From: Escherichia coli
Lineage (GTDB): Bacteria; Pseudomonadota; Gammaproteobacteria; Enterobacterales; Enterobacteriaceae
DNA: 64,000 bases
Assembly: GCF_030384885.1 (NCBI RefSeq)
Contig: NZ_CP128613.1
Direction: 5' to 3' (one strand)
The notes under the pieces are model-generated. The model saw only the letters and a program-made list of their open reading frames with translations. It ran no database searches and was not told where the DNA came from. Positions 4,062 to 59,626 of the stretch are shown piece after piece. Numbering within the stretch: the first letter of the stretch is position 1; every line of letters starts with the position of its first letter. The translations under genes and the position numbers were made by a program.

Positions 4062-4065
4062 CAGA

Positions 4066-4317: not shown

Positions 4318-4328
4318 GATGGCTTTCC

Positions 4329-6125: not shown

Positions 6126-6141
6126 AATTATTAAGTGACGA

Positions 6142-7209: not shown

Positions 7210-7268
7210 AACCTGTTAAGAGGGAATTAAATTATTATCGGACCGAAGCGGCCCGACTTTAGGGGAAA

Positions 7269-28740: not shown

Positions 28741-28858
28741 ATTATCGAATACCCGGCAGCCACGTTCTGCCGGGCTCTTCGTCCGTATACAGACTTGTTT
28801 CAACAGACCGGGAGGATTAAAACCAGACCACTTATTTGCCACGGAAAGGTTCCCTCCC

Positions 28859-29605
28859 ATGCATTATGCCGTTGTCGTCATGCTTGAACTGCTTTGCTGT
28901 ATTCACGCTTACCGTACTGGACAAGAGCGGTATTGGATTTTTATCATCTTCTGTTTTCCGGTGATTGGCTGCGTGGCGTATTTTGTCATGGTGATGCTGC
29001 CAGAAACGGGCGCTGACCGTCACGGGCGTACCTTTCTGATGCGCCTGCAGGACAAAATCAATCCGGAACGTCACCTGCGCAAATTAACCGAAGAGCTGGC
29101 GATTGCCGAGACCAATCAAAACCACTATCAACTTGCCAACGAGCTGGCGCGTCTGGAGCGTTACCACGAAGCCGTTCCCCATTATCAGCAGGCGTTAAGC
29201 GGGATATTCGTCCATGAAGCGGCAATGATGCTAAGCCTGGCGCAGGCGCAGTTTGCCATTCAGGAGTTCGCCGCCTGTCAGCAGACGCTGGAAGATGTGA
29301 TGCGTTATAACCCCGATTTTCAGTCGGCAGACGGACACTTGTTATTCGCCAGAACCTTAGCCGCCCAGGAGAAATACGCTGACGCGGAAAGCGAGTTTGA
29401 AGTATTGATTTCTTATTACCCCGGCCCGCAGGCACGTATTTTCTATGCGGAAATGCTGGCGAAAATGAGTCGACTACGTGAAGCCAACGAGCAATATGTT
29501 GCTGTGGTTGATACGGCTAAACGCTCAAGACCACATTATAGAAAACACCACCGGGAATGGATTAAGACCGCCAATGACCGGCTGAAGCAGAGTATTGTTC
29601 GATAA
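28859..29605 (+). CDS. hypothetical membrane-anchored protein: PLDc_N-like two-helix N-terminus plus helical (TPR-like) soluble domain
   Basis: 248-aa ORF with E. coli-like codon usage; N-terminus YWIFIIFCFPVIGCVAYFVMVML resembles the cardiolipin-synthase N-terminal (PLDc_N) motif W..II...P..G...Y; followed by its own hairpin terminator; weak Shine-Dalgarno. Confidence 0.6.
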   Translation: MHYAVVVMLELLCCIHAYRTGQERYWIFIIFCFPVIGCVAYFVMVMLPETGADRHGRTFLMRLQDKINPERHLRKLTEELAIAETNQNHYQLANELARLERYHEAVPHYQQALSGIFVHEAAMMLSLAQAQFAIQEFAACQQTLEDVMRYNPDFQSADGHLLFARTLAAQEKYADAESEFEVLISYYPGPQARIFYAEMLAKMSRLREANEQYVAVVDTAKRSRPHYRKHHREWIKTANDRLKQSIVR

Positions 29606-29610
29606 GTGCT

Positions 29611-29641
29611 GCGCCAGATAGTCTCTGGCGCATTAATTTTT
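29611..29641 (+). terminator. rho-independent terminator after the 248-aa ORF
   Basis: Perfect 8-bp stem gcgccaga/tctggcgc, then attaattttt. Confidence 0.6.
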
Positions 29642-29700
29642 CCCAACGTAGCATTATCCGTGCCCCATCTCCCATTTTCCCTCACCCGTACCGTCACCGC

Positions 29701-29837: not shown

Positions 29838-31154
29838 ATGAAACCGTTACATTATACAGCTTCAGCACTGGCGCTCGGACTGGCGTTAATGGGGAATGCA
29901 CAGGCAGTGACGACCATTCCGTTCTGGCATTCTATGGAAGGGGAATTGGGTAAAGAGGTGGATTCTCTGGCCCAACGTTTTAACGCCGAAAACCCGGATT
30001 ACAAAATTGTACCGACCTATAAAGGCAACTACGAACAGAATTTAAGCGCGGGGATTGCCGCATTTCGTACCGGCAACGCGCCGGCTATTTTGCAGGTTTA
30101 TGAAGTTGGCACCGCCACCATGATGGCGTCGAAAGCCATTAAACCGGTGTATGACGTGTTTAAAGAAGCGGGGATTCAATTCGATGAGTCGCAGTTTGTG
30201 CCGACGGTTTCAGGCTACTACTCCGACAGCAAAACCGGTCACTTACTCTCCCAGCCGTTCAACAGCTCGACTCCCGTTCTCTATTACAACAAAGATGCTT
30301 TCAAGAAAGCGGGATTAGACCCGGAACAGCCGCCGAAAACCTGGCAGGATCTGGCAGACTATGCCGCGAAACTGAAAGCCTCCGGCATGAAGTGCGGCTA
30401 CGCAAGCGGCTGGCAGGGCTGGATCCAACTGGAAAACTTTAGCGCCTGGAACGGTCTGCCGTTTGCCAGCAAAAACAACGGCTTTGACGGCACGGACGCG
30501 GTGCTTGAGTTCAACAAGCCGGAGCAGGTGAAACACATCGCCATGCTCGAAGAGATGAACAAGAAGGGCGATTTCAGTTACGTCGGGCGTAAGGATGAAT
30601 CCACCGAGAAGTTCTATAACGGTGATTGCGCGATGACGACCGCTTCTTCCGGTTCTCTTGCCAACATTCGCGAGTATGCCAAATTCAACTACGGCGTAGG
30701 TATGATGCCTTACGACGCCGATGCGAAAGATGCGCCACAAAACGCCATTATCGGCGGGGCCAGCCTGTGGGTGATGCAGGGCAAAGATAAAGAAACTTAC
30801 ACCGGCGTGGCGAAGTTCCTCGACTTCCTCGCGAAGCCAGAAAACGCTGCCGAGTGGCATCAGAAAACCGGTTATCTGCCAATCACCAAAGCGGCGTATG
30901 ACCTGACCCGTGAGCAGGGCTTTTACGAGAAAAACCCCGGGGCGGATACCGCGACGCGTCAGATGCTGAACAAGCCGCCGTTACCGTTCACCAAAGGGCT
31001 GCGTCTGGGCAACATGCCGCAGATCCGCGTGATTGTGGATGAAGAGCTGGAGAGCGTGTGGACCGGTAAGAAGACACCACAGCAGGCGCTGGATACCGCC
31101 GTTGAGCGTGGGAACCAGTTACTGCGCCGCTTTGAGCAGTCTACGAAGTCTTAA
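29838..31154 (+). CDS. ugpB: sn-glycerol-3-phosphate-binding periplasmic protein UgpB
   Basis: 438 aa, recognised. Confidence 0.97.
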
Positions 31155-31165
31155 CCAGTGAAATG

Positions 31166-31232
31166 TCGGATGCGTTTCGCTTATCTGACCTGGCATCGCG
31201 TGTAGGCCGGATAAGCGAAGCGCATCCGGCAC
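31166..31232. repeat. REP elements
   Basis: tgtcggatgcgtttcgcttatctgacctggca and tgtaggccggataagcgaagcgcatccggcac. Confidence 0.75.
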
Positions 31233-31251
31233 AGTTCAGGAATTAACCGTA

Positions 31252-32139
31252 ATGTCATCATCCCGTCCGGTGTTCCGCTCGCGCTGGCTGCCTTATTTGC
31301 TGGTCGCGCCGCAGCTTATCATCACCGTTATCTTTTTTATCTGGCCTGCGGGCGAAGCGTTGTGGTACTCGCTACAAAGCGTCGATCCGTTTGGCTTTTC
31401 CAGCCAGTTTGTCGGCCTGGATAACTTCGTCACGCTGTTTCATGACAGCTACTATCTCGACTCCTTCTGGACGACGATAAAATTCAGCACCTTTGTCACG
31501 GTCAGCGGTTTGCTGGTGTCGCTGTTCTTCGCGGCGCTGGTGGAGTACATCGTGCGCGGCAGCCGTTTCTATCAAACCTTAATGCTGCTGCCGTATGCCG
31601 TGGCTCCCGCCGTTGCCGCCGTATTGTGGATCTTCCTGTTTAACCCTGGTCGCGGGCTGATCACTCATTTTCTCGCTGAGTTCGGCTACGACTGGAACCA
31701 TGCGCAAAACAGCGGTCAGGCAATGTTCCTGGTGGTGTTTGCCTCAGTATGGAAGCAAATCAGCTACAACTTTCTGTTCTTCTATGCCGCGCTGCAATCC
31801 ATTCCCCGTTCGTTGATTGAAGCCGCAGCCATCGACGGGGCTGGCCCGATTCGCCGCTTCTTTAAGATTGCGCTGCCGCTTATCGCGCCGGTGAGTTTCT
31901 TCCTGCTGGTGGTGAACCTGGTGTACGCCTTCTTCGACACCTTCCCGGTGATCGATGCCGCCACGTCCGGCGGACCGGTTCAGGCTACCACGACGCTGAT
32001 TTATAAGATCTACCGCGAAGGCTTTACCGGGCTGGATTTGGCTTCGTCTGCCGCGCAGTCGGTGGTGTTGATGTGCCTCGTCATCGTGCTGACGGTGGTG
32101 CAGTTCCGCTATGTTGAAAGCAAGGTGCGTTACCAATGA
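31252..32139 (+). CDS. ugpA: sn-glycerol-3-phosphate ABC transporter permease UgpA
   Basis: 295 aa, recognised. Confidence 0.96.
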
Positions 32140-32981
32140 TTGAGAACCGTCCGTGGCTGACAATATTCAGCCATACCATGCTGATCCTCGGGATCGCGGT
32201 GATCCTCTTCCCGCTGTACGTGGCGTTTGTCGCGGCGACGCTGGATAAACAGGCCGTCTACGCCGCGCCGATGACGCTCATCCCCGGCACGCATCTGTTG
32301 GAAAACATCCACAACATCTGGGTGAACGGGGTAGGCACAAATAGCGCGCCGTTCTGGCGGATGTTGCTTAACAGCTTCGTGATGGCGTTCAGCATTACGC
32401 TCGGCAAGATTACCGTCTCGATGCTCTCGGCATTTGCCATTGTCTGGTTTCGTTTTCCGCTGCGTAACCTCTTCTTTTGGATGATTTTTATCACCCTGAT
32501 GCTGCCAGTTGAAGTGCGTATCTTCCCGACAGTAGAAGTCATCGCCAACCTGAACATGCTCGACAGCTACGCTGGTTTAACGCTGCCGCTGATGGCCTCG
32601 GCAACTGCTACCTTCCTGTTCCGCCAGTTCTTTATGACGCTGCCGGATGAGCTGGTGGAAGCCGCGCGGATCGACGGCGCGTCACCAATGCGTTTCTTTT
32701 GCGACATCGTTTTCCCGCTGTCGAAAACCAATCTGGCGGCGCTGTTTGTGATCACTTTTATTTACGGCTGGAACCAGTATTTGTGGCCGTTGTTGATTAT
32801 TACCGACGTTGATCTCGGCACCACTGTGGCAGGGATCAAAGGGATGATCGCTACAGGCGAAGGCACCACGGAATGGAATTCGGTGATGGCGGCGATGTTG
32901 TTAACGCTTATCCCTCCGGTGGTGATTGTTTTAGTGATGCAGCGTGCCTTCGTGCGCGGCCTGGTCGATAGTGAGAAATAA
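32136..32981 (+). CDS. ugpE: sn-glycerol-3-phosphate ABC transporter permease UgpE
   Basis: 281 aa; ATGA overlap with ugpA. Confidence 0.96.
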
Positions 32982-32982
32982 G

Positions 32983-34053
32983 ATGGCAGGACTGAAATTA
33001 CAGGCAGTAACCAAAAGCTGGGATGGCAAAACCCAGGTCATTAAACCGCTGACCCTTGATGTGGCGGATGGCGAATTTATCGTGATGGTCGGGCCGTCTG
33101 GCTGCGGGAAATCCACGTTGCTGCGCATGGTTGCCGGGCTGGAGCGGGTCACCGAAGGCGATATCTGGATTAACGACCAACGCGTGACCGAAATGGAGCC
33201 GAAAGATCGCGGGATTGCGATGGTGTTCCAGAACTACGCTCTTTATCCGCATATGAGTGTCGAAGAAAACATGGCGTGGGGGCTGAAAATTCGCGGCATG
33301 GGCAAGCAACAAATTGCCGAACGTGTTAAAGAAGCGGCGCGCATTCTGGAGCTGGATGGCCTGCTCAAGCGCCGTCCGCGTGAGCTTTCTGGCGGTCAGC
33401 GTCAGCGTGTGGCGATGGGCCGTGCGATTGTGCGCGATCCGGCGGTGTTCCTGTTTGATGAGCCGCTCTCTAACCTCGATGCCAAGCTGCGTGTTCAGAT
33501 GCGCCTTGAGCTGCAACAACTGCACCGTCGCCTGAAAACGACTTCACTCTACGTTACTCACGATCAGGTTGAGGCGATGACGCTCGCTCAGCGGGTAATG
33601 GTGATGAACGGCGGCGTTGCCGAACAGATTGGCACGCCAGTTGAAGTCTACGAAAAGCCCGCCACTCTGTTTGTGGCGAGTTTTATCGGCAGTCCGGCGA
33701 TGAACCTGCTGACAGGCCGCGTGAATAACGAAGGCACGCATTTCGAACTGGATGGCGGTATCGCGCTACCGCTAAACGGTGGCTACCGTCAGTATGCCGG
33801 GCGTAAAATGACTCTTGGCATTCGCCCGGAACATATTGCGTTAAGCTCGCAGGCAGAAGGCGGCATACCGCTGGTGATGGACACGCTGGAGATCCTCGGC
33901 GCAGATAACCTGGCGCACGGACGCTGGGGCGAACAGAAGCTGGTGGTGCGACTGGCGCATCAGGAGCGCCCGACGACAGGCAGCACGCTGTGGCTGCATC
34001 TGCCGGAAAATCAGCTGCATCTTTTTGATGGTGAAACAGGACAACGAGTATGA
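32983..34053 (+). CDS. ugpC: sn-glycerol-3-phosphate ABC transporter ATPase UgpC
   Basis: Recognised from [15 protein letters not shown] (356 aa); the track ORF begins 13 codons upstream. Confidence 0.95.
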
Positions 34054-34793
34054 GTAACTGGCCTTATCCCCGCATCGTCGCCCACCGTGGCGGCGGTAAA
34101 CTGGCCCCGGAAAACACCCTGGCGGCAATCGACGTTGGGGCAAAATACGGTCATAAGATGATCGAATTTGACGCGAAGTTATCGAAAGATGGCGAGATCT
34201 TCCTGCTGCATGACGACAATCTCGAGCGTACCAGCAATGGTTGGGGCGTCGCGGGCGAACTGAACTGGCAGGATTTACTGCGCGTGGATGCGGGCAGTTG
34301 GTACAGCAAAGCGTTTAAAGGTGAGCCGCTGCCGTTGCTTTCGCAGGTGGCGGAACGCTGCCGTGAACATGGGATGATGGCAAATATTGAAATCAAACCC
34401 ACCACTGGCACTGGTCCATTAACGGGCAAAATGGTATCGCTGGCGGCGCGCGAACTGTGGGCTGGTATGACGCCGCCGCTGCTGTCATCGTTTGAGATTG
34501 ATGCTTTAGACGCCGCACACCAGGCTGCACCGGAACTGCCGCGCGGTTTGTTGCTGGATGAGTGGCGCGACGACTGGCGCGAACTGACCACGCGGCTGGA
34601 CTGCGTCTCTATTCATCTCAATCATAAGTTGCTCGATAAAGCGCGAGTGATGCAGTTGAAAGACGCTGGATTACGGATTCTGGTTTATACCGTCAACAAA
34701 CCCCAGCGCGCGGCAGAGTTGCTGCGCTGGGGCGTGGATTGCATCTGTACCGATGCGATTGATGTGATTGGCCCGAACTTTACGGCCCAATAG
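34050..34793 (+). CDS. ugpQ: glycerophosphodiester phosphodiesterase UgpQ
   Basis: 247 aa, recognised ([16 protein letters not shown]...). Confidence 0.96.
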
Positions 34794-35220
34794 TTTTCAA
34801 CGGAATATCAGGCTGCGGCGTGCTGGGCTGATTCAGCATGTCGCCGTTTCTTCTCTCTGGCAACATATGCTGCTGATTCAACGAACTATCCGGATTACGG
34901 TTGCTGTTTAACATTCCGCCGTTGGTGTTGGGCAGCATTTGCTGCCGGGCGGGATTTAGCTCCCCCGGCTGTGACTGCAATACCCGCTGAGAGTTGCTAT
35001 TAAGCTGATTTTCTAAATGCTGCTGTTGCAACTGCGTTTGCGTTTTCAGTTGCTGATTCAGCATCCCTTTTTGCTGGATTTGCTGCGTTTGCATTTGAGT
35101 TTGCATTCGCTGCTGGCTGGGGATCTGATACCCCGGCTGGTTAGGGTTGTTCAGAGTATTAATGGGCTGTGCAAAGCCGACAAAAGGCAGGAGTGCCGTC
35201 AAAAGCAGAAGTCGTTTCAT
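34780..35220 (-). CDS. yhhA: Gln-rich secreted protein YhhA (DUF2756)
   Basis: 146 aa, signal peptide, Q/N-rich low-complexity; 3' end overlaps ugpQ convergently. Confidence 0.88.
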
Positions 35221-35342
35221 CGCGTATCCTCCTCTGAAGATATTCTTTAAGTTTACTCCTTTCCTGCAATCATCAGGATTAATTCAGAGTTATATACCAG
35301 GCTTAGCTGGGGTTGCCCCTTAATCTCTGGAGTATAACGATG

Positions 35343-37085
35343 ATAAAACCGACGTTTTTACGCCGGGTGGCTATTGCTGCTCTGCTCACAGGAAGTTGTT
35401 TTAGTGCTGTCGCCGCGCCACCTGCGCCGCCGCCAGTCTCGTATGGCGTGGAGGAGGATGTCTTCCATCCGGTACGCGCGAAGCAGGGGATGGTAGCATC
35501 TGTGGACGCCACTGCCACTCAGGTGGGGGTAGATATCCTTAAGCAGGGCGGGAATGCCGTTGATGCTGCCGTGGCAGTGGGCTACGCGCTGGCGGTAACG
35601 CATCCGCAGGCAGGGAATCTGGGCGGCGGCGGTTTTATGCTGATCCGCACTAAAGATGGCAATACCACCGCCATCGATTTCCGCGAAATGGCACCCGCCA
35701 AAGCGACCCGCGATATGTTCCTTGATGATCAGGGCAACCCGGACAGCAAAAAATCTCTCACTTCGCATCTTGCTTCTGGCACACCCGGTACGGTAGCGGG
35801 CTTCTCGTTGGCGCTGGAGAAATACGGCACCATGCCGCTGAACAAAGTTGTGCAGCCTGCGTTTAAACTGGCACGCGATGGTTTTATCGTTAACGATGCG
35901 CTGGCAGACGATCTCAAAACCTACGGCAGTGAAGTGCTACCAAATCACGAAAACAGCAAAGCTATCTTCTGGAAAGAGGGCGAACCGCTGAAAAAGGGCG
36001 ACAAGCTGGTACAGACGAATCTGGCAAAGAGCCTGGAGATGATTGCCGAAAACGGCCCGGATGAATTCTACAAAGGCACGATAGCGGAACAAATCGCCCT
36101 GGAGATGCAGAAAAACGGTGGCTTGATCACTAAAGAAGATTTAGCGGCGTATAAAGCGGTCGAACGTACACCAATAAGTGGCGATTATCGCGGGTATCAG
36201 GTTTACTCCATGCCACCGCCATCTTCCGGCGGGATTCATATCGTGCAGATCCTCAATATTCTGGAAAACTTCGATATGCAGAAATACGGCTTTGGCAGCG
36301 CCGATGCGATGCAAATCATGGCAGAAGCGGAGAAATACGCCTACGCCGACCGCTCGGAATATCTTGGCGACCCGGATTTTGTCAAAGTACCGTGGCAGGC
36401 GCTGACCAATAAAGCCTATGCCAAATCTATTGCCGATCAAATCGATATCAATAAAGCGAAGCCATCCAGCGAAATTCGTCCTGGCAAGCTTGCGCCTTAT
36501 GAGAGTAATCAAACTACCCATTACTCAGTGGTGGATAAAGACGGTAACGCCGTGGCGGTGACCTATACGCTGAACACCACCTTCGGTACGGGCATTGTCG
36601 CGGGCGAGAGCGGTATTTTGCTTAATAATCAGATGGATGATTTCTCCGCCAAACCAGGCGTACCGAACGTTTACGGGCTGGTGGGCGGCGATGCTAACGC
36701 TGTCGGGCCGAATAAACGTCCGCTGTCATCGATGTCACCAACCATTGTGGTGAAAGACGGAAAAACCTGGCTGGTGACCGGTAGCCCTGGCGGAAGCCGA
36801 ATTATCACCACTGTGCTGCAAATGGTGGTGAACAGCATCGATTATGGCATGAATGTCGCCGAAGCGACCAATGCGCCGCGTTTCCACCATCAGTGGTTGC
36901 CGGACGAGCTGCGTGTCGAGAAAGGATTTAGTCCGGATACGCTCAAGCTGCTGGAAGCAAAAGGTCAGAAAGTGGCGCTGAAAGAGGCGATGGGCAGTAC
37001 ACAAAGCATTATGGTTGGGCCTGACGGTGAGTTGTACGGTGCATCCGACCCGCGCTCGGTGGATGATTTAACGGCGGGGTACTAA
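35343..37085 (+). CDS. ggt: gamma-glutamyltranspeptidase
   Basis: Recognised from MIKPTFLRRVAIAALL (580 aa); catalytic Thr in the ...NQTTHYSVVDKDGNAV context. Confidence 0.97.
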   Translation: MKPTFLRRVAIAALLTGSCFSAVAAPPAPPPVSYGVEEDVFHPVRAKQGMVASVDATATQVGVDILKQGGNAVDAAVAVGYALAVTHPQAGNLGGGGFMLIRTKDGNTTAIDFREMAPAKATRDMFLDDQGNPDSKKSLTSHLASGTPGTVAGFSLALEKYGTMPLNKVVQPAFKLARDGFIVNDALADDLKTYGSEVLPNHENSKAIFWKEGEPLKKGDKLVQTNLAKSLEMIAENGPDEFYKGTIAEQIALEMQKNGGLITKEDLAAYKAVERTPISGDYRGYQVYSMPPPSSGGIHIVQILNILENFDMQKYGFGSADAMQIMAEAEKYAYADRSEYLGDPDFVKVPWQALTNKAYAKSIADQIDINKAKPSSEIRPGKLAPYESNQTTHYSVVDKDGNAVAVTYTLNTTFGTGIVAGESGILLNNQMDDFSAKPGVPNVYGLVGGDANAVGPNKRPLSSMSPTIVVKDGKTWLVTGSPGGSRIITTVLQMVVNSIDYGMNVAEATNAPRFHHQWLPDELRVEKGFSPDTLKLLEAKGQKVALKEAMGSTQSIMVGPDGELYGASDPRSVDDLTAGY

Positions 37086-37122
37086 GGTTAGCGGCCCTCT
37101 TCGTGGGAAGAGGGCCGTATTG

Positions 37123-37407
37123 TCAGGGCAAGCCGAAGGTAGCTTTTTTTATTTCATAATCCTGTAGATATTCTTCCAGCGGCTTTGCCGTTCCCAGCGA
37201 ATGAATTTCACCACTGTCTTTATCAATAATAAAAGGTGCGTTACCAGCTAAGCGCGCGGCCTCATCACCAGTTTCGAGAAATTCTCGTGCTTCGAAACAG
37301 AAATACCAGCCCTGGCTAAAGCGTCCATGTAGAGTAATGACGACGGCGAGATCTGCATCATCAAGGTAATGGTTCGCTTTCGCGAATGCTTCCTGATAAT
37401 TAATCAT
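37123..37407 (-). CDS. yrhB: heat-stable chaperone-like protein YrhB
   Basis: 94 aa, recognised (MINYQEAFAKANHYLDDADLAVVITLHG...). Confidence 0.85.
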   Translation of the reverse strand: MINYQEAFAKANHYLDDADLAVVITLHGRFSQGWYFCFEAREFLETGDEAARLAGNAPFIIDKDSGEIHSLGTAKPLEEYLQDYEIKKATFGLP

Positions 37408-37518
37408 AATGATTCTGGATTTTCCGATGGGGCAGTTAGGTCATGCTTTTTTTCAAGCGCAACATATCCAACAAAGCCTTAATAAAATATTGTAATTTAC
37501 AATAAGTGTTAATGATGT

Positions 37519-38007
37519 TCATTTCACACGCGCCATATAATACGCATCGACATATTCACCGTTTCGTAATGCGTACTTCTTGCCAGTCCCTTCAATCTCA
37601 AAGCCGAATTTTTTATAGACCTTAATTGCTGGCGCGTTATCAACGAACACCGTTAGTTCAATACGATCTACCCGCAACCAGTTGTCGCACATTGCAATCA
37701 TCTCTCGCATCAGGGCGCTGGCGACGCCGCGGTTCTTCCAGCGGGAGTCGACACAGATACCAAAGTCGGCAACATGACTGCGGCGTGGGCGTTGTTGCAC
37801 GTCAATAGTGAGATGACCCACAACGTCTCCATCAATACAGGCGACGAGTTGCTTGATGCCGGGACGATCGGCGAGTCGCTCCTGCCACATATGATCGGAA
37901 GGATGAGGCACCTGTAGTGTGTTGCAATACACCTCCGGCTGGGCGTGAATCTGCCTGATGGCCTCGTAATCCCGTGTTTCTGCATGGCGTATTACTATCT
38001 CACTCAT
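37519..38007 (-). CDS. yhhY: GNAT-family N-acetyltransferase YhhY
   Basis: Recognised from MSEIVIRHAETRDYEAIRQIHAQ (162 aa). Confidence 0.92.
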   Translation of the reverse strand: MSEIVIRHAETRDYEAIRQIHAQPEVYCNTLQVPHPSDHMWQERLADRPGIKQLVACIDGDVVGHLTIDVQQRPRRSHVADFGICVDSRWKNRGVASALMREMIAMCDNWLRVDRIELTVFVDNAPAIKVYKKFGFEIEGTGKKYALRNGEYVDAYYMARVK

Positions 38008-38099
38008 TCCTTTGTCCTCTTTGGGGTAAATGTCCCTTTCAACATCATTGACTTTCAAATGCGAGTCAAATGCATTTTTTTGCAAAAAGTGTTGGACAA

Positions 38100-38127
38100 G
38101 TGCGAATGAGAATGATTATTATTGTCT
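38100..38127 (+). promoter_or_regulatory. Fur box / ryhB promoter
   Basis: gaatgagaatgattattattg matches the Fur consensus GATAATGATAATCATTATC and sits immediately upstream of the RyhB start. Confidence 0.75.
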
Positions 38128-38128
38128 C

Positions 38129-38219
38129 GCGATCAGGAAGACCCTCGCGGAGAACCTGAAAGCACGACATTGCTCACATTGCTTCCAGTATTACTTAGCC
38201 AGCCGGGTGCTGGCTTTTT
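38129..38219 (+). ncRNA. ryhB: RyhB small RNA (Fur-repressed, iron-sparing)
   Basis: Sequence gcgatcaggaagaccctcgcggagaacctgaaagcacgacattgctcacattgcttccagtattacttagccagccgggtgctggcttttttt recognised as E. coli RyhB with its terminal hairpin and U-tract; lies between yhhY and yhhX as expected. Confidence 0.92.
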
Positions 38220-38341
38220 TTTTGACCTTTCGTTCTCAATTTATCCACGGGAAGTGCTTGTGTTTGTTATGCGCACTCCTGTAGGAACCGCGTCCGCTTT
38301 GCGCTAAGGTGGTAGATAACCACCTTAAAAAGGACGAAATC

Positions 38342-39379
38342 ATGGTCATCAACTGCGCCTTTATTGGCTTCGGCAAAAGCACCACCCGTTACCATCTGCC
38401 GTATGTACTTAACCGCAAGGATAGCTGGCATGTCGCGCATATTTTTCGCCGCCATGCGAAGCCGGAAGAACAGGCTCCCATTTATTCCCATATTCATTTC
38501 ACCAGCGATCTCGACGAAGTGCTAAACGATCCCGACGTTAAGTTGATTGTCGTCTGCACTCATGCGGACAGCCACTTCGAGTACGCGAAACGCGCGCTGG
38601 AAGCCGGGAAAAATGTGCTGGTCGAAAAACCGTTCACCCCGACACTTGCGCAGGCGAAAGAGCTGTTTGCGCTGGCGAAAAGCAAAGGGCTGACCGTTAC
38701 GCCGTATCAGAATCGTCGCTTTGACTCCTGTTTTCTGATGGCGAAAAAAGCGATTGAAAGCGGCAAGCTGGGAGAGATTGTCGAAGTGGAAAGCCATTTT
38801 GACTATTACCGCCCGGTGGCAGAAACCAAACCTGGACTGCCGCAGGATGGCGCGTTCTATGGCCTTGGTGTGCATACCCTCGACCAGATAATCTCGCTGT
38901 TCGGTCGCCCGGATCACGTCGCTTATGACATCCGCAGCCTGCGTAATAAAGCCAATCCTGACGACACCTTCGAAGCGCAGCTGTTTTATGGCGATCTAAA
39001 AGCCATCGTCAAAACCAGCCATCTGGTGAAAATCGATTATCCGAAATTTATCGTTCACGGGAAGAAAGGTTCGTTTATTAAATATGGTATCGACCAGCAG
39101 GAAACCAGCCTGAAGGCTAATATTATGCCGGGCGAGCCGGGATTCGCAGCGGATGATTCGGTCGGTGTGCTGGAGTATGTCAATGACGAGGGCGTTACGG
39201 TCAGAGAAGAGATGAAGCCGGAGATGGGCGATTACGGACGCGTTTATGATGCGTTGTACCAAACCATCACCAACGGTGCACCAAATTACGTCAAGGAATC
39301 TGAAGTTCTTACCAATCTGGAAATCCTTGAACGCGGTTTTGAGCAAGCCTCTCCCTCCACAGTGACTCTTGCGAAGTAA
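38342..39379 (+). CDS. yhhX: Gfo/Idh/MocA-family NAD(P)-dependent oxidoreductase YhhX
   Basis: Recognised from MVINCAFIGFGKSTTRYHLPYV (345 aa); good Shine-Dalgarno (aaggacg); the track ORF starts at an upstream GTG. Confidence 0.93.
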   Translation: MVINCAFIGFGKSTTRYHLPYVLNRKDSWHVAHIFRRHAKPEEQAPIYSHIHFTSDLDEVLNDPDVKLIVVCTHADSHFEYAKRALEAGKNVLVEKPFTPTLAQAKELFALAKSKGLTVTPYQNRRFDSCFLMAKKAIESGKLGEIVEVESHFDYYRPVAETKPGLPQDGAFYGLGVHTLDQIISLFGRPDHVAYDIRSLRNKANPDDTFEAQLFYGDLKAIVKTSHLVKIDYPKFIVHGKKGSFIKYGIDQQETSLKANIMPGEPGFAADDSVGVLEYVNDEGVTVREEMKPEMGDYGRVYDALYQTITNGAPNYVKESEVLTNLEILERGFEQASPSTVTLAK

Positions 39380-39501
39380 GTTTGATGACCTCTCGAATAG
39401 TTCAATTTTTTTGAACAGAGGGGTCAATTTTCACCCTCTATCATCCCAGGCGGATCGGGTCCACACTAAGCCCATCGAAATCATTCAGGGGGCGAATACA
39501 A

Positions 39502-40197
39502 ATGATCTACTTACGCAAAGCAAATGAACGTGGTCATGCAAATCATGGCTGGCTGGACTCCTGGCATACTTTCTCTTTTGCCAACTATTACGACCCGAAC
39601 TTTATGGGCTTTTCCGCGCTGCGCGTGATTAACGACGACGTGATTGAAGCAGGGCAGGGCTTCGGCACTCACCCGCATAAAGATATGGAAATTTTGACCT
39701 ACGTGCTGGAAGGTACTGTTGAGCACCAGGACAGCATGGGCAATAAAGAGCAGGTTCCGGCGGGCGAGTTCCAGATTATGAGTGCGGGTACGGGTATTCG
39801 TCACTCAGAGTACAACCCAAGCAGTACCGAGCGTCTGCATCTGTATCAGATCTGGATCATGCCAGAAGAAAACGGCATTACGCCACGTTATGAACAACGT
39901 CGCTTCGATGCCGTACAGGGTAAACAGCTGGTGCTTTCGCCTAATGCGCGAGATGGTTCGTTGAAAGTGCATCAGGATATGGAGCTGTACCGTTGGGCGC
40001 TGGTGAAAGATGAGCAGTCGGTGCATCAGATTGCCGCTGAACGCCGCGTCTGGATCCAGGTGGTGAAAGGCAATGTCACCATTAACGGCGTGAAAGCCTC
40101 GACCAGCGATGGTCTGGCAATCTGGGATGAGCAGGCAATCTCCATCCATGCGGATAGCGACAGCGAAGTGTTACTGTTCGATCTGCCGCCGGTTTAA
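39502..40197 (+). CDS. yhhW: pirin-like quercetin 2,3-dioxygenase YhhW
   Basis: 231 aa, cupin motifs, recognised. Confidence 0.94.
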   Translation: MIYLRKANERGHANHGWLDSWHTFSFANYYDPNFMGFSALRVINDDVIEAGQGFGTHPHKDMEILTYVLEGTVEHQDSMGNKEQVPAGEFQIMSAGTGIRHSEYNPSSTERLHLYQIWIMPEENGITPRYEQRRFDAVQGKQLVLSPNARDGSLKVHQDMELYRWALVKDEQSVHQIAAERRVWIQVVKGNVTINGVKASTSDGLAIWDEQAISIHADSDSEVLLFDLPPV

Positions 40198-40420
40198 AAC
40201 TTAACGGCATTTTTGAAGCCTGCCTTTTTGCGGGCTTCATCGCTCGCCCCGGTCGCGTGCTGATGTACGCGACCGGGGTTTCGTCGCGTCTTTAGTACAA
40301 TGCGATGCAATTGATTTAGTGTATATCTAATTATTGTAAACAAGCACTGTTTTCTCCGGGAAGGTTCTGATGCGTCCGTGTTAAACTAAGAGAATCTATC
40401 TCTTTTGTACCTTCAGGACG

Positions 40421-41416
40421 ATGAAAAAGAAAAGACCCGTACTTCAGGATGTGGCTGACCGTGTTGGCGTGACCAAAATGACGGTCAGCCGTTTTTTACG
40501 CAACCCGGAGCAGGTTTCCGTCGCTCTACGTGGCAAGATTGCCGCCGCTCTTGATGAACTGGGTTATATTCCCAATCGCGCGCCCGATATCCTCTCTAAT
40601 GCCACCAGCCGGGCGATTGGCGTCCTGTTACCTTCACTCACCAACCAGGTTTTCGCTGAAGTATTACGCGGTATCGAAAGCGTCACGGACGCACACGGTT
40701 ATCAGACGATGCTGGCGCACTACGGTTACAAACCGGAAATGGAGCAAGAACGCCTCGAATCAATGCTTTCCTGGAATATCGACGGACTTATTCTCACCGA
40801 ACGTACCCACACGCCCCGCACCTTAAAGATGATTGAAGTAGCGGGTATTCCGGTGGTGGAGCTGATGGACAGTAAGTCGCCGTGCCTCGATATCGCCGTC
40901 GGTTTTGATAACTTTGAAGCGGCACGCCAGATGACCACCGCCATTATTGCTCGCGGGCATCGTCACATTGCCTATCTCGGCGCACGCCTCGACGAACGTA
41001 CTATCATCAAACAGAAGGGATATGAGCAGGCGATGCTGGATGCAGGCCTGGTGCCGTATAGCGTGATGGTCGAGCAATCTTCTTCTTACTCTTCCGGTAT
41101 TGAACTGATTCGCCAGGCGCGGCGGGAATATCCGCAGTTGGATGGCGTATTTTGTACTAATGATGACCTGGCGGTCGGCGCGGCGTTTGAATGTCAGCGT
41201 CTGGGGCTGAAAGTTCCTGACGATATGGCGATTGCCGGTTTCCACGGTCATGACATTGGTCAGGTGATGGAGCCACGGCTGGCGAGCGTGCTGACGCCGC
41301 GTGAGCGGATGGGCAGCATTGGCGCTGAGCGCCTGCTGGCGCGTATTCGTGGCGAATCTGTGACACCGAAAATGTTAGATTTAGGTTTCACCTTGTCACC
41401 AGGCGGATCTATTTAA
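40421..41416 (+). CDS. gntR: gluconate utilisation repressor GntR (LacI family)
   Basis: 331 aa, N-terminal helix-turn-helix (LQDVADRVGVTKMTVSRFL), recognised. Confidence 0.96.
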   Translation: MKKKRPVLQDVADRVGVTKMTVSRFLRNPEQVSVALRGKIAAALDELGYIPNRAPDILSNATSRAIGVLLPSLTNQVFAEVLRGIESVTDAHGYQTMLAHYGYKPEMEQERLESMLSWNIDGLILTERTHTPRTLKMIEVAGIPVVELMDSKSPCLDIAVGFDNFEAARQMTTAIIARGHRHIAYLGARLDERTIIKQKGYEQAMLDAGLVPYSVMVEQSSSYSSGIELIRQARREYPQLDGVFCTNDDLAVGAAFECQRLGLKVPDDMAIAGFHGHDIGQVMEPRLASVLTPRERMGSIGAERLLARIRGESVTPKMLDLGFTLSPGGSI

Positions 41417-41495
41417 GCTCACAAATTTGAAGTAGCTCACACTTATACACTTAAGGCACGGATGGATATTGCTTCTGTTTTTGTCCGGCTGGACA

Positions 41496-41525
41496 ATGTT
41501 ACCGATAACAGTTACCCGTAACATT
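41496..41525 (+). promoter_or_regulatory. GntR operator(s) in the gntK promoter
   Basis: aatgttaccgataacagttacccgtaacatt contains two overlapping ATGTTAC-N-GTAACAT-like palindromic half-site arrangements, about 30 bp upstream of gntK. Confidence 0.75.
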
Positions 41526-41555
41526 TTCTGATTCTTGTATTGTGGGGGCACCACT

Positions 41556-42083
41556 TTGAGCACGACTAACCATGATCACCACATTTACGTCTTGATGGGC
41601 GTATCGGGCAGCGGCAAATCTGCAGTCGCCAGTGAAGTGGCGCATCAACTTCATGCCGCGTTTCTTGATGGCGATTTCCTCCATCCGCGCTGCAATATCG
41701 AAAAAATGGCGTCTGGCGAACCGCTGAATGACGACGATCGCAAACCGTGGTTACAGGCGCTTAACGACGCCGCGTTTGCCATGCAGCGCACCAATAAAGT
41801 GTCGCTGATCGTCTGTTCTGCACTGAAAAAGCACTATCGCGACCTGCTGCGTGAAGGTAATCCGAATCTCTCTTTCATCTACCTGAAAGGCGATTTTGAT
41901 GTAATTGAAAGCCGTCTGAAAGCGCGCAAAGGCCATTTCTTTAAAACCCAAATGCTGGTGACGCAGTTTGAAACGCTGCAGGAGCCGGGTGCGGACGAAA
42001 CCGATGTACTGGTGGTGGATATCGATCAACCGCTGGAAGGTGTTGTGGCAAGCACCATTGAGGTTATTAAAAAAGGCAAATAA
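41556..42083 (+). CDS. gntK: thermoresistant gluconokinase GntK
   Basis: Recognised (STTNHDHHIYVLMGVSGSGKSAV, P-loop); start assigned to the TTG giving a 175-aa product; the track's upstream ATG at 41535 is the alternative. Confidence 0.9.
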   Translation: MSTTNHDHHIYVLMGVSGSGKSAVASEVAHQLHAAFLDGDFLHPRCNIEKMASGEPLNDDDRKPWLQALNDAAFAMQRTNKVSLIVCSALKKHYRDLLREGNPNLSFIYLKGDFDVIESRLKARKGHFFKTQMLVTQFETLQEPGADETDVLVVDIDQPLEGVVASTIEVIKKGK

Positions 42084-42086
42084 GTA

Positions 42087-43427
42087 GTGACTACATTAAC
42101 GCTTGTTTTAACAGCAGTAGGGTCTGTTTTACTGCTGCTGTTTTTAGTCATGAAGGCGCGTATGCACGCTTTCCTGGCTTTGATGGTGGTGTCTATGGGG
42201 GCTGGCCTTTTTTCCGGTATGCCGCTCGATAAAATCGCAGCGACGATGGAAAAAGGGATGGGAGGCACCCTCGGCTTCCTGGCGGTAGTTGTCGCCCTGG
42301 GAGCCATGTTTGGCAAGATCTTACATGAAACCGGCGCAGTCGATCAGATTGCCGTCAAAATGCTCAAATCCTTCGGTCACAGTCGTGCGCATTATGCCAT
42401 TGGCCTTGCGGGCCTGGTTTGTGCGCTACCACTGTTCTTTGAAGTGGCGATTGTTCTGCTGATTAGCGTTGCTTTCTCAATGGCGCGCCATACTGGCACG
42501 AACCTGGTGAAGCTGGTTATCCCGTTATTCGCGGGCGTGGCGGCAGCAGCGGCGTTCTTACTACCGGGGCCAGCGCCAATGCTGCTGGCATCGCAGATGA
42601 ATGCTGACTTTGGCTGGATGATCCTGATTGGCCTGTGTGCGGCAATCCCGGGAATGATTATTGCCGGGCCGCTGTGGGGTAATTTCATCAGCCGCTATGT
42701 GGAGCTGCATATTCCTGACGATATCAGCGAACCGCATCTCGGCGAAGGCAAAATGCCGTCCTTCGGATTCAGCCTGTCGCTGATCCTGCTGCCGCTGGTG
42801 CTGGTGGGGCTGAAAACCATTGCCGCACGTTTTGTGCCGGAAGGCTCTACCGCTTACGAATGGTTCGAGTTTATCGGTCATCCGTTTACCGCAATTCTGG
42901 TCGCTTGCCTGGTAGCAATTTACGGCCTGGCGATGCGTCAGGGTATGCCGAAAGACAAAGTGATGGAGATTTGCGGTCACGCGCTGCAACCGGCGGGGAT
43001 TATTCTGCTGGTGATTGGTGCAGGCGGCGTGTTCAAACAGGTGCTGGTTGACTCTGGCGTAGGTCCGGCGCTGGGCGAAGCGTTAACCGGCATGGGCCTG
43101 CCGATTGCCATCACCTGCTTCGTGCTGGCAGCTGCAGTGCGCATCATTCAGGGTTCTGCCACCGTTGCCTGTTTAACGGCGGTGGGACTGGTGATGCCGG
43201 TTATTGAACAGCTGAACTACTCCGGTGCGCAAATGGCGGCGCTGTCAATTTGTATCGCCGGTGGTTCGATTGTTGTCAGCCACGTTAACGACGCCGGTTT
43301 CTGGTTGTTCGGTAAATTTACCGGCGCGACCGAAGCCGAAACGCTGAAAACCTGGACCATGATGGAAACCATCCTCGGCACCGTTGGTGCCATCGTCGGG
43401 ATGATTGCGTTCCAGCTGTTGAGTTAA
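42087..43427 (+). CDS. gntU: low-affinity gluconate transporter GntU
   Basis: 446 aa, GTG start, GntP-family membrane protein, recognised. Confidence 0.94.
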   Translation: MTTLTLVLTAVGSVLLLLFLVMKARMHAFLALMVVSMGAGLFSGMPLDKIAATMEKGMGGTLGFLAVVVALGAMFGKILHETGAVDQIAVKMLKSFGHSRAHYAIGLAGLVCALPLFFEVAIVLLISVAFSMARHTGTNLVKLVIPLFAGVAAAAAFLLPGPAPMLLASQMNADFGWMILIGLCAAIPGMIIAGPLWGNFISRYVELHIPDDISEPHLGEGKMPSFGFSLSLILLPLVLVGLKTIAARFVPEGSTAYEWFEFIGHPFTAILVACLVAIYGLAMRQGMPKDKVMEICGHALQPAGIILLVIGAGGVFKQVLVDSGVGPALGEALTGMGLPIAITCFVLAAAVRIIQGSATVACLTAVGLVMPVIEQLNYSGAQMAALSICIAGGSIVVSHVNDAGFWLFGKFTGATEAETLKTWTMMETILGTVGAIVGMIAFQLLS

Positions 43428-43436
43428 GTTTGTTCG

Positions 43437-43467
43437 CCCGGTAGTTGTGACGCTACCGGGCTCTTTT
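43437..43467 (+). terminator. rho-independent terminator after gntU
   Basis: Stem cccggtag/ctaccggg followed by ctctttt; lies between convergent gntU and yhgN. Confidence 0.7.
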
Positions 43468-43483
43468 CGAAAAACTCTCCTCG

Positions 43484-44077
43484 TTACCCCTTCATCCACA
43501 TTCGAATGCCGTCGAGGAACATCTGAGTTGCCATCATCACCAGAATCAATCCCATCAGGCGTTCAAGTGCATTCACCCCTTTCTCGCCCAGCAGACGTAA
43601 AAATAGCGAAGACTGTAGCAGGATGACAAAGGTGCCACCCCAGGCCAGCAGCAGAGCAATTACCAGATGTCCCATCTGATTCGGGTACTGATGAGACAAC
43701 AACATCAGCGTGGCGAGAATAGTCGGCCCGGCGACTAACGGAATTGCCAACGGCACGATAAACGGCTCTTCACCTGCCGGAAGCCCGCTGCTATTTCCTG
43801 AAGCACTGGGGAAAATCATCTTAATGGCGATCAGAAACAGAATGATGCCGCCAGAAATGGAGACGGTTTCTGCCCGCAGGCTAAGAAATGCCAGAATTTT
43901 CTCGCCCGCAAACAGGAACACCAGCATCACCAGGAGAGCAATAAGCAACTCTCGCACCATGATTGCCCGCCGTCTTTTCGGTTCAGTATGTTTCAGTACG
44001 GACATGAAAATAGGTAGGTTTCCGAGCGGATCCATAATCAGGATCAATAAAACTGCTGCAGAAATGATTTCATTCAT
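43484..44077 (-). CDS. yhgN: MarC-family inner membrane protein YhgN
   Basis: 197 aa, recognised. Confidence 0.92.
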   Translation of the reverse strand: MNEIISAAVLLILIMDPLGNLPIFMSVLKHTEPKRRRAIMVRELLIALLVMLVFLFAGEKILAFLSLRAETVSISGGIILFLIAIKMIFPSASGNSSGLPAGEEPFIVPLAIPLVAGPTILATLMLLSHQYPNQMGHLVIALLLAWGGTFVILLQSSLFLRLLGEKGVNALERLMGLILVMMATQMFLDGIRMWMKG

Positions 44078-44269
44078 AACTCAAATTCCCTGATAATTGC
44101 CGCGGACTTTCTGCGTGCTAACAAAGCAGGATAAGTCGCATTACTGATGGCTTCGCTATCATTGATTAATTTCACTTGCGACTTTGGCTGCTTTTTGTAT
44201 GGTGAAAGATGTGCCACGAGGAGACCGGCACATTTATACAGCACACATCTTTGCAGGAAAAAAACGCTT

Positions 44270-45373
44270 ATGAAAAATGTTGGTTTTATCGGCTGGCGCG
44301 GTATGGTCGGCTCCGTTCTCATGCAACGCATGGTTGAAGAGCGCGACTTCGACGCCATTCGCCCTGTCTTCTTTTCTACTTCTCAGCTTGGTCAGGCTGC
44401 GCCGTCTTTTGGCGGAACCACTGACACACTTCAGGATGCCTTTGATCTGGAGGCGCTAAAGGCCCTCGATATCATTGTGACCTGTCAGGGCGGCGATTAT
44501 ACCAACGAAATCTATCCAAAGCTTCGTGAAAGCGGATGGCAAGGTTACTGGATTGACGCAGCATCATCTCTGCGCATGAAAGATGACGCCATCATCATTC
44601 TTGACCCCGTCAATCAGGACGTTATTACCGACGGATTAAATAATGGCATCAGGACTTTTGTTGGCGGTAACTGTACCGTAAGCCTGATGTTGATGTCGTT
44701 GGGTGGTTTATTCGCCAATGATCTTGTTGATTGGGTGTCCGTTGCAACCTACCAGGCCGCTTCCGGCGGTGGTGCGCGACATATGCGTGAGTTATTAACC
44801 CAGATGGGCCATCTGTATGGCCATGTGGCAGATGAACTCGCGACCCCGTCCTCTGCTATTCTCGATATCGAACGCAAAGTCACAACCTTAACCCGTAGCG
44901 GTGAGCTGCCGGTGGATAACTTTGGCGTGCCGCTGGCGGGTAGCCTGATTCCGTGGATCGACAAACAGCTCGATAACGGTCAGAGCCGCGAAGAGTGGAA
45001 AGGGCAGGCGGAAACCAACAAGATCCTCAACACATCTTCCGTAATTCCGGTAGATGGTTTATGTGTGCGTGTCGGGGCATTGCGCTGCCACAGCCAGGCA
45101 TTCACTATTAAATTGAAAAAAGATGTGTCTATTCCGACCGTGGAAGAACTACTGGCTGCGCACAATCCGTGGGCGAAAGTCGTTCCGAACGATCGGGAAA
45201 TCACTATGCGTGAGCTAACCCCAGCTGCCGTTACCGGCACGCTGACCACGCCGGTAGGCCGTCTGCGTAAGCTGAATATGGGGCCGGAGTTCCTGTCAGC
45301 CTTTACCGTGGGCGACCAGCTGCTGTGGGGGGCCGCGGAGCCGCTGCGTCGGATGCTTCGTCAACTGGCGTAA
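44270..45373 (+). CDS. asd: aspartate-semialdehyde dehydrogenase
   Basis: Recognised from [21 protein letters not shown] (367 aa); the track ORF starts 41 codons upstream. Confidence 0.97.
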
Positions 45374-45645
45374 TCTTTATTCATTAAATCTGGGGCGCGT
45401 TGCCGCCCCTGTTAGTGCGTAATACAGGAGTAAGCGCAGATGTTTCATGATTTACCGGGAGTTAAATAGAGCATTGGCTATTCTTTAAGGGTGGCGGAAT
45501 ACAAGAGTATTTACAGCCTTACCTGAAGTGAGGACGACGCAGAGAGGATGCACAGAGTGCTGCGCCGTTCAGGTCAAAAAAATGTCACAACCAGAAGTCA
45601 AAAATCCAGTTGGATGGGGTGACACAATAAAACAGGAAGACAAGC

Positions 45646-47832
45646 ATGTCCGATCGTATCGATAGAGACGTGATTAACGCGCTAATTGCAGGCCATTTTG
45701 CGGATCCTTTTTCCGTACTGGGAATGCATAAAACCACCGCGGGACTGGAAGTCCGTGCCCTTTTACCCGACGCTACCGATGTGTGGGTGATTGAACCGAA
45801 AACTGGGCGCAAACTCGCAAAACTGGAGTGTCTCGACTCACGTGGATTCTTTAGCGGCGTCATTCCGCGGCGTAAGAATTTTTTCCGCTATCAGTTGGCT
45901 GTTGTCTGGCATGGTCAGCAAAACCTGATTGATGATCCTTACCGTTTTGGTCCGCTAATCCAGGAAATGGATGCCTGGCTATTATCTGAAGGTACGCATC
46001 TGCGCCCATATGAAACCTTAGGCGCGCATGCAGATACTATGGATGGCGTCACGGGGACGCGTTTTTCTGTCTGGGCTCCAAACGCCCGCCGGGTCTCGGT
46101 AGTCGGTCAATTCAACTACTGGGACGGTCGCCGTCACCCGATGCGCCTGCGTAAAGAGAGCGGCATCTGGGAACTGTTTATCCCTGGGGCGCATAACGGT
46201 CAGCTCTATAAATACGAGATGATTGATGCCAATGGCAACTTGCGTCTGAAGTCCGACCCTTATGCCTTCGAAGCGCAAATGCGCCCGGAAACCGCGTCTC
46301 TTATTTGCGGGCTGCCGGAAAAGGTTGTGCAGACTGAAGAGCGCAAAAAGGCGAATCAGTTTGATGCGCCAATCTCTATTTATGAAGTTCACCTGGGCTC
46401 CTGGCGTCGCCACACCGACAACAATTTCTGGTTGAGCTATCGCGAGCTGGCCGATCAACTGGTGCCTTATGCTAAATGGATGGGCTTTACCCACCTCGAA
46501 CTGCTGCCCATTAACGAGCATCCGTTCGATGGTAGTTGGGGTTATCAGCCAACCGGCCTGTATGCGCCGACCCGCCGCTTTGGTACTCGCGACGACTTCC
46601 GTTATTTCATTGATGCCGCACACGCAGCTGGTCTGAACGTGATTCTCGACTGGGTGCCAGGCCACTTCCCGACCGATGACTTTGCGCTTGCCGAATTTGA
46701 TGGCACGAACTTGTATGAACACAGCGATCCGCGCGAAGGCTACCATCAGGACTGGAATACGCTGATCTACAACTATGGTCGCCGTGAAGTCAGTAACTTC
46801 CTTGTCGGTAATGCGCTTTACTGGATCGAACGTTTTGGTATTGATGCGCTGCGCGTCGATGCTGTGGCATCAATGATTTATCGCGACTACAGCCGCAAAG
46901 AGGGGGAGTGGATCCCGAACGAATTTGGCGGGCGCGAGAATCTTGAAGCGATTGAATTCTTGCGTAATACCAACCGTATTCTTGGTGAGCAGGTTTCCGG
47001 TGCGGTGACAATGGCTGAGGAGTCTACCGATTTCCCTGGCGTTTCTCGTCCGCAGGATATGGGCGGTCTGGGCTTCTGGTACAAGTGGAACCTCGGCTGG
47101 ATGCATGACACCCTGGACTATATGAAGCTCGACCCGATTTATCGTCAGTATCATCACGGTAAGCTCACCTTCGGGATGCTCTACAACTACACTGAAAATT
47201 TCGTCCTGCCGTTGTCGCATGATGAAGTGGTCCACGGTAAAAAATCGATTCTCGACAGGATGCCAGGCGACGCATGGCAGAAATTCGCTAACCTGCGCGC
47301 GTACTATGGCTGGATGTGGGCATTCCCGGGCAAGAAACTGCTGTTCATGGGGAACGAATTTGCCCAGGGCCGCGAGTGGAACCATGACGCCAGCCTCGAC
47401 TGGCATCTGCTGGAAGGCGGCGATAACTGGCACCACGGTGTCCAGCGTCTGGTGCGCGATCTGAACCACACCTACCGCCACCATAAAGCAATGCATGAAC
47501 TGGATTTTGACCCGTATGGCTTTGAATGGCTGGTGGTGGATGACAAAGAACGCTCGGTGCTGATCTTTGTTCGCCGCGACAAAGCCGGGAATGAAATCAT
47601 CGTTGCCAGTAACTTTACGCCAGTGCCGCGTCATGATTATCGCTTCGGCATTAACCAGCCGGGTAAATGGCGTGAGATCCTCAATACCGATTCCATGCAC
47701 TATCACGGCAGTAATGCAGGCAATGGCGGCACGGTACACAGCGATGAGATTGCCAGCCACGGTCGTCAGCATTCACTAAGCCTGACACTACCACCGCTGG
47801 CCACTATCTGGCTGGTTCGGGAGGCAGAATGA
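45646..47832 (+). CDS. glgB: 1,4-alpha-glucan branching enzyme GlgB
   Basis: 728 aa, GH13 motifs, recognised. Confidence 0.98.
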
Positions 47833-56649: not shown

Positions 56650-56674
56650 CTTTTGAGAGAACGGAATCAGCGCG

Positions 56675-58269: not shown

Positions 58270-58376
58270 TTCCCTGACTCAAAAAGTAGGTCAGATTGTT
58301 GACAAAGTGCGCTTTGTTCATGCCGGATGCGACATGAACGTCTTATTGGCCTACAAGACCATGCAAATTGTAGTGG

Positions 58377-59626
<1,250 letters not shown>

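Follow-up and report, generated by a model that had tools for sequence, protein, structure and literature searches.

The yrhB–yhhY spacer of an Escherichia coli genome as the probable stump of a decayed Hcp-toxin islet

When two genes lie close together in one genome of E. coli and are separated by several further genes in K-12, does the short form represent the site before it was occupied, or what was left behind when most of its contents were lost? The question is raised by the spacer between yrhB and yhhY in the window (i.e., the whole stretch of 64,000 nucleotides analysed here), which a sequence-only reading had put at about 110 bp and had taken for the uninterrupted 'empty site', since K-12 carries yhhZ, yrhA and an IS1 at this position. 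Several lines of evidence point to the other answer, and we consider it likely that the short spacer is the decayed stump of an Hcp-toxin islet, i.e., a deletion derivative in which yrhB is an orphan immunity gene.

Layout of the locus and its allelic states

The layout was taken from the list of open reading frames and from the RefSeq annotation of the identical record NZ_CP027579.1 (E. coli 2013C-4282), which agree with each other:

35340-37085, + strand: ggt (gamma-glutamyltransferase), which borders the variable site on the right and is conserved (RefSeq annotation)
37092-37117, no strand assigned: perfect 11+11 hairpin (CGGCCCTCTTC/GAAGAGGGCCG) between ggt and yrhB, found as an inverted repeat
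37123-37407, - strand: yrhB, 94 aa, Pfam Imm35 (open reading frame list, RefSeq annotation and PF15567 match)
37408-37518: yrhB-yhhY spacer, exactly 111 bp
37519-38007, - strand: yhhY (GNAT N-acetyltransferase), the conserved left flank (Pfam Acetyltransf_1, E 1.4e-18)

The yhhY stop codon is the point directly after which every islet variant begins, and the homology breakpoints on the yhhY side fall at 37521-37523, both against K-12 and against an empty-site genome. The neighbours in the 64-kb window are ggt, yhhY, yhhX and the ugp genes; no T6SS core genes were found within it, such that yrhB lies outside any T6SS cluster.

K-12 MG1655 has the order yhhY, yhhZ, yrhA interrupted by IS1E (insA6/insB6), yrhD, yrhB and ggt, with 3132 bp from the yhhY stop to the yrhB start. 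The K-12 gene content given in the sequence-only reading was therefore right, and K-12 does not share the 110-bp spacer. The islet in K-12 (an Hcp-ET1 HNH-DNase effector with immunity genes) occupies the same site, from the yhhY stop to the ggt hairpin, and its yrhB is orthologous to that of the window (96.5% nucleotide identity), but its Hcp-HNH effector, yrhA, yrhD and IS1 are missing from the window. The effector gene, yhhZ, had been regarded as a toxin-like remnant; by Pfam, YhhZ is instead a full-length Hcp-HNH effector, and PMC5714182 recognises it as a His-Me finger nuclease fused to Hcp.

Alignment to MG1655 bears out the absence of the K-12 islet genes from the window, but it does not reveal an insertion into the spacer. 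Homology reaches window position 37523 (in the last yhhY codons) and restarts at 37413, 6 nt before the yrhB ATG, and the 109 bp between these breakpoints have no counterpart in the K-12 islet, its flanks or intergenic regions. Because of this, the K-12 segment replaces the spacer and is not inserted into it: a pre-insertion target would consist of the K-12 left flank joined to the right flank, minus the target duplication, and the spacer has no such composition. IS1E is irrelevant to the window junction, since it is located inside yrhA, a gene missing from the window, and is a K-12-lineage or sporadic event. The two ends of the spacer share a direct repeat of 7 nt (ATCATTA), which was considered as a target-site duplication, but it is not conserved in strain 042 and was treated as a chance occurrence.

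Junction-specific searches of 5426 complete E. coli genomes revealed the following states of the interval:

State A: ggt-yhhY about 60 bp, nothing else (986 genomes)
State B, the state of the window: yrhB plus about 110 bp (232 genomes)
State C: tssD/yhhZ-yrhA-yrhD-yrhB (3758 genomes with at least 80% cover)
State D: O157-type islet with a DUF4225 gene (343 genomes)

Altogether, yrhB is present in 4091 of the 5426 genomes (about 75%, leaving about 25% without it). State B is real and no accident of assembly, since in addition to these 232 genomes it occurs in a gut-metagenome contig, the one contig recovered in a metagenome scan with a conserved 25-mer, which has the same yrhB-only arrangement. 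The window haplotype of state B is confined to two genomes, 2013C-4282 and 2017-02-2CC (99.6%); the other 230 (e.g., 042 and APEC O78) are 92.2% identical to the window over 445 bp and 83.6% identical in the spacer. Within state C, IS1 occurs in K-12 derivatives and elsewhere only sporadically, and IS3 or IS5 is present in some genomes. The O157-type islets (represented by O157 AR-0428, locus L004, 7142-8996) are all at least 99% identical across their 343 genomes, and their yrhB is truncated after about 20 codons beside ggt and fused to the ggt hairpin, so that O157 lost the immunity gene that the window retains.

Outgroups are needed before a spacer that is short relative to K-12 can be called an empty site. 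Scanning for YhhY in one genome per species yielded 40 loci, 38 of which also carry ggt (as determined by tblastn), with no ggt match at two distant loci (L043 and L044). In 37 of the 38 ggt-carrying outgroup loci, yhhY and ggt are convergent and 42-90 bp apart, with no yrhB, the exception being Franconibacter, in which the gap is larger. Outgroups with this empty site include E. albertii, E. whittamii, Escherichia sp. E1V33 and two further GTDB Escherichia species, as well as Citrobacter, Enterobacter, Klebsiella, Lelliottia and Pluralibacter, among others, and the Escherichia spacer of about 60 bp, with its one hairpin between the convergent genes, is plainly orthologous to that of E. coli state A. 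Given the outgroup loci and the orthology of the spacer, sequence comparison identifies state A, in which ggt and yhhY lie about 60 bp apart with one hairpin, as the ancestral empty site. The window departs from this form (i.e., about 40-90 bp and one hairpin), in that it has a 433-bp insert (37086-37518) including yrhB and its flanks. The original reading was thus correct in that yhhZ, yrhA, yrhD and IS1 are missing from the window, but the site is neither empty nor never-occupied: the empty state is a different one that lacks yrhB, and it is found both among the outgroups and in 986 genomes of E. coli.

The ancestral hairpin seems to have survived the changes around it. The 36 bp that follow ggt are common to the window, K-12, Nissle and the O157 islets, and similar GCCCTC...GAGGGC hairpins adjoin ggt in empty-site species and in C. 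portucalensis; the hairpin at 37092-37117 is probably, by its presumed homology to these, the retained ancestral ggt/yhhY terminator.

Two further observations concern the sampling and the background of this region. A 4-kb contig (L007, CABHOW010000200.1) in a metagenome-assembled genome labelled Flavihumibacter carries the E. coli genes yhhX-yhhY-yhhZ-yrhA-yrhD at 96-100% protein identity; it ends before ggt, has a state-C islet, and almost certainly entered the bin as contaminating E. coli DNA. The ugp-ggt-gnt region (window 30000-47000) is unusually polymorphic, with 96.05% identity between K-12 and Nissle and 96.12% between the window and K-12, as against about 99.5% for asd. We considered, and rejected, the possibility that the host belongs to a cryptic Escherichia clade (4-6% divergence from K-12), because K-12 and Nissle are equally divergent here.

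A decayed gene tail in the spacer

Matches to the spacer were judged by local alignment against 1000 dinucleotide shuffles, and the spacer resolves into three parts:

37408-37445, - strand: yrhB leader, non-coding, common to the O157-type islet (O157 match)
37446-37478, - strand: degraded 3' end (last 12 codons, GFVGYVALEKKH...) of a conserved small gene (C. freundii match)
37479-37518, - strand: AT-rich yhhY-proximal part, with a TTGTAAATTACAA palindrome and a weak sigma-70-like site

Spacer nt 41-73 (window 37478-37446) match C. freundii DNA (L049:5921-5956) at 33/36 nt with a score of 42, which was reached by 0/1000 shuffles, and the matching segment forms the final 12 codons of an 85-aa open reading frame that is intact there, 45-80 nt upstream of an Imm35 gene. 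The distance to the Imm35 start is the same for the end of the C. freundii frame and for the spacer match. An overlapping stretch, spacer nt 62-90 (window 37457-37429), matches the DNA 22-49 nt upstream of the truncated O157 yrhB remnant (score 37, 0/1000 shuffles), again at a concordant position. The 85-aa family, with members in Citrobacter and Budvicia, has a near-invariant C-terminus, GFVEYVGLERKK, conserved in 26 protein clusters, and its gene precedes the yrhB homologue in Citrobacter and in O157-type islets; after an in-frame stop, the window reads GFVGYVALEKKH....

K-12 harbors a different portion of the same gene. The 'intergenic' region between yrhD and yrhB is a decayed copy of residues 2-48 of the 85-aa protein (tblastn E 7e-8), such that, upstream of yrhB, the window retains the 3' tail of the gene and K-12 its 5' half. 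(This K-12 pseudogene, KKIPFDVL...DERVF, at L003 6563-6703 or NC_000913.3 ~3584562-3584702, is unannotated in the record.) By these alignments, states B and C keep complementary pieces of one ancestral gene, which accounts for their sharing no sequence upstream of yrhB. Because the tail in the spacer comes from a gene that is intact in fuller islets, state B is best viewed as a deletion derivative and the spacer as a deletion scar.

The first ~40 nt of the spacer have no significant homologue, their similarity to the O157 and K-12 DNA upstream of yrhB being weak and non-significant, and comparison of the spacer with K-12 intergenic regions, with empty-site spacers and with the E. fergusonii and C. 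portucalensis islets gave nothing significant. A low-stringency blastn search of the 5426 genomes found no copy outside the yrhB-only arrangement; as the spacer is known only from the short arrangement, the exact precursor islet of the deletion is not among the sampled genomes. No remnant of a toxin gene was detected in the spacer when the toxins of E. fergusonii and Pectobacterium and 120 Gln_amidase proteins served as tblastn queries, the best scores being no higher than those for shuffled DNA, and a 'DLT' match to the toxin C-terminus was dismissed as chance.

yrhB and its Imm35 relatives

YrhB matches Imm35 (PF15567) over residues 6-83 with an E-value of 8.5e-23 and 80.7 bits (vs. a cutoff of 27.5), and Zhang et al. 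2012 (PMC3482391) describe a specific association of Imm35 with Tox-PL1. Unlike the members of such Imm35/Tox-PL1 pairs, the Imm35 copy in the window is solitary, with no Tox-PL1/Gln_amidase gene directly upstream, but its relatives are paired with PF15644 Gln_amidase. In E. fergusonii, beside ggt, a gene encoding a 383-aa Hcp::Gln_amidase precedes yrhB, with its stop overlapping the yrhB start; residues 1-235 of this protein are 86% identical to YhhZ, and the yrhB of the window is 87.7% identical in nucleotides to that of E. fergusonii. The same locus in C. portucalensis reads yhhX-yhhY-294aa-Hcp::Gln_amidase-Imm35-83aa-ggt, with 71% amino acid identity between its Imm35 protein and YrhB. In Pectobacterium, a CdiA-CT Gln_amidase is followed by an Imm35 homologue, and Enterobacter has a solitary Imm35 copy at a different locus.

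The gene in the window is therefore homologous to the immunity genes of genuine effector-immunity pairs elsewhere (i.e., in E. fergusonii and C. portucalensis), and since no toxin lies upstream of it and its close homologues are paired, it is an orphan member of the family. From these matches, YrhB is identified as an Imm35 immunity protein, with an Hcp- or CdiA-borne papain-fold glutamine deamidase (Tox-PL1) as its predicted cognate toxin, and E. coli yrhB as the putative immunity remnant of an Hcp-glutamine-deamidase module that has been displaced. No other gene of the islet survives in the window. The reading frame is intact over 94 codons, and dN/dS values of 0.16-0.44 against 042, K-12, Nissle and E. 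fergusonii, each based on only 7-43 substitutions per pair, indicate purifying selection.

According to the review PMC6099711, Ma et al. (2017) described a papain-like Hcp-ET5/ETi5 clan of Hcp-fused toxins, with which the Hcp::Gln_amidase-Imm35 modules of E. fergusonii and C. portucalensis correspond; these have the same immunity family, at 71-88% identity to yrhB, and the same locus by ggt, but they include a toxin gene, which the window is entirely without and of which no remnant is detectable. Orphan immunity genes that are kept after effector replacement are likewise a described phenomenon (Kirchberger et al. 2017, as cited in PMC6730261), and those of T6SS and other polymorphic-toxin loci resemble yrhB in not being preceded by an effector, in being kept after its loss or replacement, and in being under purifying selection. 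Unlike the orphan immunity genes in T6SS clusters, as PMC6730261 defines them, yrhB is a single gene between two housekeeping genes, and its protective role is putative.

DNA similar to the E. fergusonii glutamine-deamidase domain is absent from all 5426 E. coli genomes, and for this reason a selective benefit would need toxins from other species or diverged toxins; the Gln_amidase toxin domain is widespread in other Gammaproteobacteria.

The ggt gene of the window has an affinity of its own, being 96.85% identical to that on the E. fergusonii contig vs. 93.6-95.1% to the six E. coli ggt alleles compared, and yrhB reverses this pattern, being closer to K-12 than to E. fergusonii (96.5% vs. 87.7%). 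The contrast suggests either that recombination broke at the boundary between ggt and yrhB or that ggt was transferred between species.

Alternative explanations and expression signals

The sequence of events that we favour would begin with the ancestral interval, empty but for the one hairpin, about 60 bp long, on which ggt and yhhY converge. This small hypervariable site would then have captured a T6SS Hcp-toxin (Hcp-ET) effector/immunity islet, whose full order would have been yhhY, hcp fused to a toxin domain, immunity gene(s), the 85-aa gene, yrhB and ggt. A deletion that began just past the yhhY stop codon and reached the last third of the 85-aa gene would have left the 111 bp (i.e., the decayed gene tail and the yrhB leader) and an intact yrhB, the orphan most likely being kept as protection against such toxins from other enterobacteria. 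The polarity of the locus would accordingly run from empty, to a full Hcp-toxin islet, to several decayed forms.

The opposite polarity, in which the window presents a virgin, never-occupied site and the yhhZ-yrhA-IS1 segment of K-12 was inserted later, can appeal to the absence of these genes from the window and their presence in K-12, and also to the age of the short arrangement, which must be old given that its two haplotypes differ by ~16% in the spacer. We nevertheless regard it as extremely improbable: a truly empty, yrhB-less state exists in outgroups and in 986 E. coli genomes, the K-12 segment is not flanked by halves of the spacer, with which it has no homology, and the gene whose tail lies in the spacer is intact in larger islets only, and a fragment cannot precede the whole. 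Nor does it seem at all likely that YrhB is a housekeeping heat-stable chaperone whose proximity to toxins is incidental, with the short spacer reflecting a compact yhhY-yrhB operon. This view draws on the K-12 product name ('putative heat shock chaperone') and on the listing of YrhB among the chaperones of E. coli (PMC6598250), but it is at odds with the strong Imm35 match and with the overlap of its start with the stop of Gln_amidase toxin genes in three genera and on two delivery platforms (Hcp and CdiA). Moreover, yrhB is missing from about a quarter of E. coli genomes and from all Escherichia outgroup loci retrieved with yhhY, although E. fergusonii has it, and so patchy a presence is a poor fit to a housekeeping gene. 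The evidence instead favours replacing the annotation 'putative heat shock chaperone' by orphan Imm35 immunity protein, the cognate toxin of YrhB being encoded at this locus in E. fergusonii and Citrobacter.

A different challenge to the deletion-scar reading is that the spacer might be not neutral debris but a functional regulatory element, either a promoter or leader of yrhB or a 9-codon leader reading frame (MLRLKKSMT). A block of 37 nt (37444-37480), which encloses the decayed gene tail, is identical between the two state-B haplotypes while the surrounding spacer differs by ~20%, the 9-codon frame is open in both, and a sigma-70-like site with 9/12 matches (-35 TTAACA at 37512-37507, -10 TATTTT ending at 37484) lies in the yhhY-proximal part; an orphan yrhB would, after all, need some source of expression signals. 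Yet promoter-like sites are no more numerous in the spacer region than expected from shuffles, the spacing between -35 and -10 is not conserved in strain 042, the spacer matches no Rfam family (the only match being the neighbouring RyhB), and its predicted RNA fold is not significant, with a z-score of only -1.67. A coding sequence that decayed recently would also be expected to leave such a conserved block, and the comparison involves two haplotypes only. A regulatory function for the spacer is, on balance, unlikely. Likewise rather unlikely, and speculative, is a combination of ideas in which yrhB serves as a species-wide shield against Hcp- or CdiA-delivered deamidases of gut Enterobacterales (e.g., Citrobacter and E. 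fergusonii), and the 37-nt block was co-opted from the tail of the dead gene as an expression signal.

With respect to expression itself, no terminator-like site was found between yhhY and yrhB, and no Shine-Dalgarno sequence is evident for yrhB. Because no terminator intervenes, transcription from yhhY could read through into yrhB, and the gene is probably transcribed in this manner and/or from a weak promoter in the spacer. The RyhB small RNA (Rfam RF00057, 83.1 bits) lies at 38158-38222 on the + strand, between yhhY and yhhX as in K-12, with a sigma-70-like promoter (10/12 matches) at 38093-38122 and a terminator at 38197-38215.

The significance of these results is modest. This kind of locus, an Hcp-ET effector with orphan immunity, is already known, and what we find is ordinary, already described variation that goes nothing beyond the known evolution of polymorphic-toxin loci.

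Other parts of the window also differ from K-12. Between glgP and glpD, where K-12 has only yzgL, the window has an insertion (55141-59554) encoding two PstS-family phosphate-binding proteins, one hypothetical protein and an IS3-family transposase. An extra gene for a 248-aa TPR-repeat protein (28859-29605, + strand) is situated between livF and ugpB, where K-12 is without it (alignment break 28740-29654), and an extra gene for a 102-aa hypothetical protein with no Pfam match (12415-12723, + strand), also lacking in K-12, is situated between tusA and zntA. A fatty-acid/aryl-polyene-like biosynthetic cluster extends beyond yhhT (115-7646, - strand) and includes genes for an ApeI-family dehydratase, a ketosynthase chain-length factor, two acyl carrier proteins, an AMP-binding protein, a glycosyltransferase and a methyltransferase. 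Finally, a DeoR/GlpR-family regulator (62656-63414, + strand) is annotated as an intact CDS, and glpR of K-12 MG1655 is annotated as a pseudogene.
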